Origin: Escherichia coli O157:H7
GTDB taxonomy: Bacteria; Pseudomonadota; Gammaproteobacteria; Enterobacterales; Enterobacteriaceae
NCBI RefSeq assembly: GCF_013167455.1
Contig: NZ_CP038328.1
DNA length: 64,000 nucleotides
Reading direction: 5' to 3' (one strand)
This document shows, in pieces, positions 58,966 to 60,263 of the stretch. The first letter of the stretch is position 1, and every line of letters begins with the position of its first letter. Made by a program: the position numbers.

Positions 58966-60263
58966 TAAAACTTAGTTCGTTTTAAAGATTCTGCAGACAG
59001 TGTCTGCAGAATTCGAAACCGCTGAAATTAACGGAGTCTATAGCCTTCTTCTAGCACCGCCTGTGTTCGAACGAGTTCATCCGCGAGTCGTTTTTCATCA
59101 GGTAGTTGCATCTTATATTCACTCGCCAGAACGGTGTTAGGCAAACCAGCCAGTGCATAATGCGCTTCTCCGACTCCTTTCTCTGCACAGAGAACCAGAC
59201 CGATGGGCGGATTTTCATCCGGTAGCGTCCAGTGCTCTTTGGCGTAGTTGAGATACATATTCATCTGTCCGGCATCGCTATAGCTGAATTTGCCCACTTT
59301 TAGATCGACGATTAGCAGGCAGCGTAAACGGCGGTGGAAAAACAGCAGATCGACACGAAACCAGTTGTCATCAATGCGTAACCTTCGCTGCCGACCAACA
59401 AAGGCAAAATCATCCCCAAGTTCCAGCATGAAATCCATCAGGTGGTTGATCAGCGCCTCCTCAAAATCGGATTCTGAGTATTCATCTTTCAATTCCAGAA
59501 ATTCGAGCACAAAGGGATCGCGTATCGCCTGTTGCGGAAGAATATGCGTCTCGGCAGGAGCGTGTTGTTGCAGCATGGCTGATTTGTCATGTGACAGCAG
59601 TGTTCGCTCATAAAATTGGGTCGCAATTTGCCGTTCTAGCTGGCGAACAGACCAGCCACAGCGGAGCGTCTCTTTTTCATAAAAGCTGCGGGTGTCAGCG
59701 TTTTTAACGGAAAGTAAACGGACGTAAGTGGACCAGGGCAATGGTGTTAATTCGCCAGACACTGTCTGGCGAATTTCAACATGTTGAAAAAAGAGGTAAA
59801 AAAGCCTCATTTGGCGTAAGTTTTTTGCAGAGAACCCACGCTTATACCTTAGACTTAAATCCTTTGATAGTCGCTTGATTAGCTGCGCACCATACGCAGC
59901 CCTGGCCTCGCCACCTTGTTCAAATTCGACAATTCGTCGGCCAATTTCCCAGTATGTCGCGGTCATCAGCGCGTTAACGCTACGTACCGTTTCCGTCCGG
60001 GCGCTATCGACCAGGTGAATAATACCGTCGTGGATTTGCTGGTAGCCTGTTGAGGTTCTCTCTGAGAGCGATTCCATTATCTTTCCCTTTATATGGCGCA
60101 GTGTTGAATAATGGAATCAGCTATACGCCGGGCATCTGCCGGTAACAATCCAGATGTGCGTATTACATTGGTTTTCTTCAGATTATGCGAGGCGCTTTCC
60201 AGAACGAAAGGAGAATTTCAGCGCCGACTCTTTTCTGAGGAGGCGGCGCTGGGACAGAGCTTA

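Follow-up and report, generated by a model that had tools for sequence, protein, structure and literature searches.

Conserved intragenic stem-loops of the DUF1016/YhcG nuclease family at the nanQ-gltD locus of Escherichia coli O157:H7

The DNA analysed here (hereafter the window) is a stretch of 64,000 nucleotides from Escherichia coli O157:H7 (contig NZ_CP038328.1, assembly GCF_013167455.1), and the feature under study is a palindromic element located within and beside yhcG. This gene (59028..60077, minus strand) encodes a PD-(D/E)xK nuclease with DUF1016_N and YhcG_C domains and is present as a short allele of 349 amino acids (aa). A palindrome, referred to as unit 3, occupies 59749..59775 in the part of the gene that encodes the inter-domain linker. 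It has the sequence AATTCGCCAGACA-C-TGTCTGGCGAATT, with perfect 13-bp arms, and encodes IRQTVSGEL on the minus strand; over the unit, the open reading frame (ORF) reads ...VEIRQTVSGELTPLPW.... Unit 3 is the sole unit remaining in this allele. Unit 4 is a free-standing palindrome, ATTCTGCAGACA-G-TGTCTGCAGAAT, with 12-bp arms at 58988..59012. It lies in the 59-bp spacer between yhcG and the convergent gene nanQ (yhcH; 58504..58968, plus strand), whose 3' end faces it, 20 bp past the nanQ stop at 58968 and 16 bp past the yhcG stop at 59028. Upstream of yhcG is gltD (60261..61679, minus strand); both K-12 and strains that lack yhcG have one more unit 15 bp past the gltD stop, and this unit is absent from the window. 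The sequences and coordinates of both palindromes, and the position of the longer one within a DUF1016 coding sequence (CDS), were as given in an original prediction made from the window alone.

That prediction also considered a chance origin improbable, and the counts agree. By simple arithmetic (~64000 x 4^-13), about 0.001 perfect palindromes with 13-bp arms are expected per spacer length, and unit 3 is the longest perfect palindrome of the window. The other palindromes with arms of at least 10 bp were one repeat of A and T only and terminator-like hairpins in which a G+C stem stands between an A-run and a T-run (44679-44708, 41775-41801, 50211-50236, 4981-5006, 20963-20987 and 51719-51743). 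The core common to units 3 and 4, CAGACANTGTCTG, is present in two exact copies, whereas 100 shuffles led us to expect 0.08 matches with up to one mismatch. A third match at 3662-3674, CGGACAGTGTCTG, has one mismatch, lies in rRNA-like sequence with non-complementary flanks, and was set aside as unrelated. Both units conform to the pattern ATT-nnn-CAGAC-nnn-GTCTG-n'n'n'-AAT with 11 of 11 pairs. In one yhcG allele, translation continues past the stop into the downstream palindrome and yields ...ILQTLSGES; therefore, the two window palindromes belong to one repeat family, as their likeness had been taken to indicate. Every Escherichia locus with yhcG also had unit 4, the arms of which vary in a compensatory manner (TG/CA and TC/GA). 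An antisense ORF on the plus strand (59741-59878) yields a mirror peptide, LIRQTLSGEF, across unit 3 because the palindrome is self-complementary, and provides no evidence for a gene.

A genome scan with the YhcG protein gave 80 loci from Enterobacteriaceae, Burkholderiaceae, Acidobacteria, Bacteroidota, Verrucomicrobia, Cyanobacteria, Chloroflexota, Actinobacteria and Planctomycetes. Nearly all of them encoded one to three copies of I-x-Q-T-x-S-[AG]-[EQK]-[SLF]. The DNA of the units followed the pattern above, in which the nnn arms are complementary yet vary among units (GTG/CAC, TTC/GAA, CGC/GCG, CCG/CGG and GTA/TAC). Among 127 distinct units of this CAGAC type, 52, 43 and 56 double changes were counted at the three variable stem pairs, a degree of covariation that was reached by none of 500 shuffles.

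Codon usage was compared at sites defined by the peptide only (QT.S[AG]) in 64 non-enterobacterial genes, with a mean G+C content at third codon positions of 70%. The motif Ser was encoded by TCT at 81 of 82 sites, compared to 116 of 1236 (9%) elsewhere in the same genes, and the motif Ile by ATT at 52 of 54, compared to 26%; Gln was CAG at all 82. The third base of the Thr codon was essentially never a pyrimidine, whereas ACC and ACT together account for 45% of the Thr codons in the rest of these genes. Residue 9 was S, L or F, the codons of which share only a first-base T. At all 82 sites the third base of codon 2 was C when residue 7 was Gly (52 cases) and G when it was Ala (30 cases), a coupling that base pairing explains and that has no protein-level reason. 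As the stem sequence turns over while the arms remain complementary, the constraint lies on the nucleic acid, and the peptide motif follows from it. Conservation among yhcG homologues beyond the needs of the protein, which had been suggested as a way to examine the palindrome, was thus strongly evident in both codon bias and covariation.

The element extends well beyond the YhcG subfamily. In a divergent sample of ten plasmid homologues (28-39% identity) and 80 homologues from viral contigs, palindromes with unrelated stems were located at the same alignment position, centred four codons before the protein motif [LI][SP]W[STG]H. Examples, out of many of the kind, are AATTCTCGTATCA-C-TGATACGAGAATT (peptide RILVSLIRELSWTHF), CAATTGTCGTGAC-GCT-GTCACGACAATTG (peptide PIVVTLSRQLSWSHF), GCAATTGCGCAACAG-C-CTGTTGCGCAATTGC (peptide AIAQQPVAQLPWGH), AAAAGTGTCACCA-C-TGGTGACACAATT (peptide EKVSPLVTQLSWSNH) and AATTTGCTACACA-C-TGTGTAGCAAATT (peptide AICYTLCSKLSWSHN), each a stem-loop of a DUF1016 homologue. 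We also searched 128 distinct CDSs, chosen by protein homology alone, for the best palindrome of the whole gene with a 12-bp stem and a 3-nt loop (at least 10 of 12 pairs). This palindrome fell in the linker in 108 CDSs, 30 abutting the W motif and 78 at most 60 codons upstream, and seven further CDSs had 9 of 12 pairs at the canonical spot.

Covariation across the family was assessed in 43 units that were anchored on the protein motif only and had at least 9 of 13 pairs. In this set 89% of cells paired, compared to 59% in shuffles, and 149 cells were double changes, compared to 46 +/- 6. Stem positions 5-11 each displayed three or four Watson-Crick pair types. The bases beside the dyad centre varied independently, and the physical loop, including that of unit 3, is therefore 3 nt. 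The element can be described as a stem of 11-15 bp with a 3-nt loop, immediately upstream of [LI][SP]W[STG]H in the linker-coding part of the gene. In the YhcG subfamily the unit is multiplied in tandem (one to three copies, 39-bp period) and also occurs as free-standing copies beside the gene. That this is an ancient, nucleic-acid-level stem-loop of the DUF1016/YhcG family, conserved in its pairing, is near certain. Neither the literature searched on DUF1016, YhcG, PDC-S02 and COG4804 nor the RNA-family library contained a description of the palindrome.

Over this region the window matches E. coli O157:H7 genomes at 100% identity. In most E. coli, K-12 and a second O157:H7 strain (4276) among them, yhcG encodes 375 aa and has 78 more bases adjoining the palindrome. 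Alignment with these two strains places an in-frame deletion junction at 59738..59741, with 2 bp of microhomology (CA) and a loss of 78 bp, or two 39-bp units (26 codons). The 78-bp segment holds two palindromic units, AAAGATTTGGCAGAC-AGC-GTCTGCCAAATCTTT and GGGAATTCTGCAGA-TGGTG-TCTGCGGAATTCCC, and the full-length gene consists at this point of three tandem 39-bp (13-codon) units, EIRQTVSGELTPL, GIPQTPSAEFPSA and KIWQTLSAKSFPL. The segment was present in 3417 of 5426 E. coli genomes, and the contiguous junction of the window type in at most 458, mostly O157:H7. By these alignments, the window palindrome is the survivor of a tandem array that has been reduced in this allele. Other alleles carry one, two or three units and encode proteins of 349, 370, 375 or 382 aa. 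The tandem array, the 78-bp deletion and the family-wide nature of the element go beyond what could be read from the window.

The units, together with ~65 bp upstream of them in the orientation of the gene, form a hyper-divergent mosaic block of ~200 bp (window ~59700-59900). Two E. coli allele classes differ by 33-70% within this block and by at most 3% elsewhere in the gene (…NLRQMRLFYLFFQHVEI… versus …NLWQFKNFYICFQRIEI…, from a comparison of the window with loci L005 and L009). Similar NLRQ-type and NLWQ-type variants were observed in Salmonella and Citrobacter homologues, which suggests recombination or a long-lived polymorphism. The length of yhcG is also scored in the LSPA-6 lineage assay, whose classical yhcG allele 2 is probably exactly 78 bp longer. 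In that assay yhcG is one of six length markers, with a lineage I amplicon of 394 bases (PMC3514354, PMC8733641, PMC5320567). The gene and the sort of length polymorphism are the same as here, and the window represents the short form; the typing papers, in contrast, used the size difference without its sequence basis.

Several rearrangements of this locus end at palindromes. K-12 W3110 has five units, namely one in the nanQ-yhcG spacer, three in yhcG and one 15 bp past the gltD stop; in locus L246 they lie at 1163, 1925, 1964, 2003 and 9501. The two outer units bound the segment gltF-yhcA-yhcD-yhcE-yhcF-yhcG, which is missing from 948 genomes; these retain a single palindrome, identical to the 27-mer of the window, with a left flank from the nanQ side and a right flank from the gltD side. 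Reading this empty site as a simple deletion was rejected, as the 14 bp that flank it on the right, CATTGTTACCTCGC, do not occur in the window and equal the K-12 gltD-proximal flank. In genomes of the O104:H4 type (726 genomes), a foreign segment of 482 bp replaces the 3' part of yhcG and ends at the outer foot of unit 1 (locus L002, 1570-2051, from E. coli O104:H4 FWSEC0009). It contains an ORF of 101 aa that is annotated 'transposase' and has no Pfam or NCBIfam match. We considered whether this segment might be a mobile element that targets hairpins, and rejected the idea because it was seen at one locus only and its ORF matches no family. In one strain (E. coli LR-71-1, locus L007, 1248-2022) IS1 is located within the gltD-proximal unit, and the N-terminal part of yhcG is deleted alongside. 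The yhcG-gltD spacer of the window (60078-60260) is without gltF, yhcA, yhcD, yhcE, yhcF and the gltD-proximal palindrome of K-12 (locus L246, 2331-9540). Upstream of yhcG, the sequence is homologous to K-12 as far as about 60204, a point 56 bp short of the gltD stop, which marks a second deletion in which no palindrome is involved.

The original prediction had proposed a genome-wide search for related palindromes. In E. coli no enrichment was observed: BLAST with a 37-mer against 5426 genomes, which did not scan degenerate variants, matched the chromosome at the nanQ-gltD locus only. A pattern scan of other sources gave 38 loci from viral contigs and more than 120 from metagenome contigs. In the metagenome sample, 93 of 133 matches were in YhcG-type ORFs and 35 were in loci without such an ORF, mostly in non-coding DNA. 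All three variable pairs were complementary in 18 of these 35, whereas 1 in 64 is expected by chance. Free-standing copies usually lay within 90 bp of the 3' end of a gene. Their annotated neighbours were mostly of defence-island or mobile-element types, including HsdR, TrwC relaxase, topoisomerase, AbiEii, RhuM with HNH, a large serine recombinase, an HsdS-integrase fusion and a MazF-like pair; several other neighbours had no family match or belonged to an unrelated family. Three related prophage loci (L119, L123 and L124) are distinguished by a cassette of two genes, ahead of which lies a pair of palindromes homologous to the pair inside the gene; in one of these loci the DUF1016 gene is lost and the palindrome pair alone persists. 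The cassette, seen also at L095 and bordered by palindrome pairs, encodes a MazF-like growth inhibitor and an uncharacterised protein of 191 aa, and lies beside the DUF1016 gene or replaces it. Nearby are an ORF that is integrase-like in appearance and a large ORF without a PHROG match.

Turning to the protein, the yhcG ORF matched Pfam DUF1016_N (E = 5e-44) and YhcG_C (E = 1e-56), both above gathering scores, and YhcG matched PDC-S02, a candidate defence family of PADLOC. NCBIfam offers no name for it, and no solved structure of a relative was detectable by sequence. Residues 101-130, the repeat region, have a predicted local distance difference test (pLDDT) score of 35-46 in the AlphaFold2 model and form a low-confidence linker, so that the peptide encoded by the palindrome is predicted to be dispensable. 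YhcG has been placed nearest to archaeal Holliday-junction resolvases, YraN and DUF91 (Kosinski et al. 2005, PMC1189080). In K-12, an antisense or divergent transcript of stationary phase, G0-10703, extends over 128 bp of the yhcG 5' untranslated region (PMC7967276). A search with the DUF1016/YhcG protein gave at least 8000 scored candidates, all with E <= 1e-10, and the contexts of the family included Type I restriction-modification loci, conjugative plasmids, integrative and conjugative elements and prophages. On IncC/IncP-type and other plasmids the DUF1016 gene and a tyrosine-integrase gene upstream of it share 4 bp (L251 and L253, 341-344). On an Aeromonas plasmid it lies between hsdM-like methyltransferase and hsdS genes, with overlapping stops and starts (L250, 350-353 and 1396-1399). 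These neighbours are apparently conserved partners in an operon.

The palindromes were compared with known element classes. An intrinsic terminator was rejected, as a scan of 58400-60400 reported neither palindrome and the sequence past the stems is not T-rich, with no U tract. No Rfam family was recognised; cmscan of 14 loci gave only sub-threshold noise from microRNA models. Repetitive extragenic palindromic (REP) sequences and bacterial interspersed mosaic elements (BIMEs) did not fit a single E. coli locus with mostly intragenic copies, flanks without GTAG, and a PD-(D/E)xK partner gene in place of RAYT. Integron attC sites, which have R''/R' core sites (RYYYAAC ... GTTRRRY), an imperfect stem with extrahelical bases and a place at cassette 3' ends, were discounted on the outer arms (AATT...AATT), the perfect stems and the mid-gene position, IntI neighbours not having been searched systematically. 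A clustered regularly interspaced short palindromic repeat (CRISPR) array was rejected because the 39-bp period leaves 6-14 bp between stems, compared to unique CRISPR spacers of about 26-72 bp, with at most three copies and in-frame coding. Reading of the sequences revealed no conserved slippery site upstream of the stems that might indicate a programmed frameshift, and no conserved Met was found in the alignments that could serve as an internal start past the hairpin.

RNA folding, which had been named earlier as a check, gave stable predicted hairpins for both window palindromes. The energies were -16 to -22 kcal/mol for each hairpin (unit 3, -19.6, z = -5.0; unit 4, -16.6 to -19.4) and -66 kcal/mol for the three-unit array (z = -9.9). 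Strong helix covariation was accompanied by G·U-type pairs that were no commoner than A·C. G·T/T·G versus A·C/C·A mismatches numbered 19 versus 25 in the large set and 5 versus 8 in the core stem of the diverse set, few in total, and the loop is strand-symmetric (purine-C/G-pyrimidine). Although the numbers are small, the mismatch and loop data lean towards a DNA-level element, or DNA-level copying, that does not distinguish between the strands. The perfect arms kept among orthologues and the paired changes also match the pattern left by template switching, a match of pattern and not a proof of mechanism. A signature of loop inversion was sought as well; pairs of units with reverse-complement loops on identical arms numbered 9 of 52, not significantly above the 6.3 +/- 2.3 expected.

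The mechanism we favour, to which we assign a probability of roughly one in three (0.35), is that the element acts as DNA. It would form a hairpin or cruciform, on either strand, and would serve as a cis-site for the nuclease encoded by the gene itself, whose domain is of the NucS or Holliday-junction-resolvase type. Such a self-site could provide self-regulation or a linkage of the site with the gene. A recombinogenic side effect might then account for the gain and loss of units, including the 78-bp deletion, for the mosaic block, and for deletion and insertion end-points at palindromes. In favour of this mechanism are the non-wobble pairing, the strand-symmetric loop, the non-coding copies between convergent genes, the missing U tract and Rfam match, the rearrangements ending at palindromes, and a nuclease type akin to junction resolvases. 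Several points weigh against it. Contact of YhcG (DUF1016) with the palindrome is a prediction from sequence, and a self-cut site inside the gene would require protection. Palindromes of 25-31 bp extrude cruciforms poorly at physiological supercoiling. Breakpoints at palindromes are expected from palindrome instability alone, and the missing G·U preference, which is based on few mismatches, is equally expected under template switching. Lastly, no free-standing copies of the palindrome of the plasmid DUF1016 subfamily, on which its nuclease could act, were found on plasmids. In a broader form, the DUF1016/YhcG nuclease and its intragenic hairpin may constitute a two-part unit in which the hairpin is cognate substrate, operator or inhibitor, as DNA or mRNA; we put this forward tentatively, as a possibility that is open to considerable doubt.

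The same covariation is the classical signature of a structured RNA, and an mRNA hairpin in the DUF1016 transcript might act as a pause or processing site between the domains, as an autoregulatory operator that the protein binds, or as an antitoxin-like RNA within the gene that keeps the nuclease in check (compare ToxI), with free-standing copies stabilising 3' untranslated regions as REP elements do. The stable folds, the fixed frame within a region that is always transcribed, and the copies near gene 3' ends (15-20 bp past the gltD, nanQ and yhcG stops) are compatible with such a role, and a single-gene defence candidate such as YhcG would need built-in control. We consider it rather unlikely. 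Against it, wobble pairs are not preferred, the loop constraint is the same on both strands, the loops are triloops and not tetraloops, U tracts and Rfam relatives are lacking, and YhcG is predicted to cut DNA; the DNA end-points at palindromes would also be left unexplained by a role in RNA alone. A dimeric sequence-specific protein, which the original prediction had offered as one possible reader of the sites, or a site-specific recombinase with core sites here, is a far less probable explanation and fits poorly. The ATT...CAGAC...GTCTG...AAT core is conserved within the YhcG subfamily and contains GACNNNGTC, an interrupted palindrome of the type read by restriction enzymes; integrase or serine-recombinase genes adjoin some copies, and island boundaries coincide with units. 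However, a sequence-reading dimer or a restriction-type site does not require non-conserved positions to pair, as they do here, and the core is wholly different between DUF1016 subfamilies in the same hosts. The central region is 1-3 nt, compared to 6-8 bp in tyrosine-recombinase sites, and the 37-mer matched no copies elsewhere in the E. coli chromosome.

The palindrome may instead be neutral and self-perpetuating. An ancestral quasi-palindrome in the linker would have been perfected and kept by intrastrand template switching, in which a mutation in one arm is reverted or copied into the other and the peptide follows. Template switching is documented in E. coli, where the exonuclease mutants xonA and exoX show altered rates of template-switch mutation. 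A proposal that it conserves perfect non-coding inverted repeats has been made for Proteobacteria (Lavi et al. 2018, PMC5941160). Under this model one expects strict Watson-Crick pairing without wobble preference, as seen, together with paired transversions (for example TG/CA to TC/GA between E. coli alleles), a strand-symmetric loop, and palindromes that outlive gene loss, as in the yhcG-less strains and the prophage locus; the location of the peptide in a low-confidence linker also agrees. However, one codon position has been kept in ~85-90% of a family that has diverged to below 30% identity, and as loss would be irreversible, more losses would be expected. The window contains no second coding palindrome of this length, the stem stays at 11-15 bp even in long, unconstrained linkers, loop-inversion pairs were not enriched, and the choice of this gene family is left unexplained. 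Neutral maintenance is a possibility that we consider only slightly less probable than the favoured mechanism. Lastly, the palindrome might have arisen by chance from the codons chosen for a conserved peptide, since Q-T-x-S can be encoded with partial self-complementarity and the motif is indeed conserved. The codon and covariation tests refute this and leave it next to no probability: GC-rich genomes have fixed rare codons here, residues with no relation to one another covary at 82 of 82 sites, non-coding copies exist, and a window of this size should hold only ~0.001 such palindromes. The favoured DNA-level mechanism, the mRNA hairpin and neutral template switching are not separable by the present data. 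The functions listed in the original prediction are thereby narrowed; RNA hairpins and a recombination target may each still apply, and the end-points of rearrangements do coincide with the palindromes.

Through a family-wide stem-loop, a very large and uncharacterised nuclease family gains a concrete hypothesis. The element is an unusually clear case in which nucleic-acid structure overrides protein coding, to the extent that rare codons become fixed and unrelated residues coupled. It also explains both the length variation of yhcG, a lineage-typing marker of O157:H7, and the hotspot of structural variants that the nanQ-gltD interval forms in E. coli. If the reading as a two-part unit is true, the gene would be a single-gene, self-contained module whose coding sequence doubles as a regulatory or target nucleic acid, which could explain how a candidate defence nuclease (PDC-S02) stays harmless and how its loci reshuffle. 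If the element is neutral instead, it would represent a striking propagation of palindromes by template switching across many bacterial phyla.

Sites located inside the gene of the protein that acts on them are known from parS in parB/spo0J, pac in the small-terminase gene, the pT181 origin in repC and the phiX174 origin in gene A. These resemble the DUF1016 element in that a palindromic or hairpin cis-element lies in the CDS of a protein that acts on nucleic acid, is inherited with it and constrains its peptide. They differ in that their sites are conserved and the interaction there is proven, whereas here the stem turns over and the interaction is a prediction; in addition, the DUF1016 protein is a PD-(D/E)xK nuclease without an assigned role. 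REP sequences and BIMEs are extragenic, occur in hundreds of dispersed copies, carry a GTAG/CTAC tetranucleotide and are associated with the Y1 (HUH) transposase RAYT. Like the units described here, they are palindromes of 25-35 bp, single or in tandem, that lie 3' of genes, flank a nuclease-type gene and show local rearrangements; the DUF1016 units, in contrast, are mostly intragenic, occupy one E. coli locus and have a PD-(D/E)xK partner.

In type III toxin-antitoxin systems of the ToxI/ToxN kind, ToxI lies upstream of the toxin gene, is processed by the endoribonuclease and folds into pseudoknots. Both systems tie short tandem repeats (36 nt in ToxI, 39 nt here) to a nuclease gene in phage-defence contexts, but the DUF1016 units are intragenic perfect hairpins. 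Similar in their manner of change are the inverted repeats attributed to template switching (PMC5941160; quasi-palindrome mutagenesis in E. coli, PMC7202029), which likewise keep perfect arms across orthologues, change both arms jointly and have no wobble preference. Those published repeats are short, non-coding and from Proteobacteria, whereas the DUF1016 stem-loop is coding, holds a fixed codon position and has undergone complete sequence turnover across many phyla.

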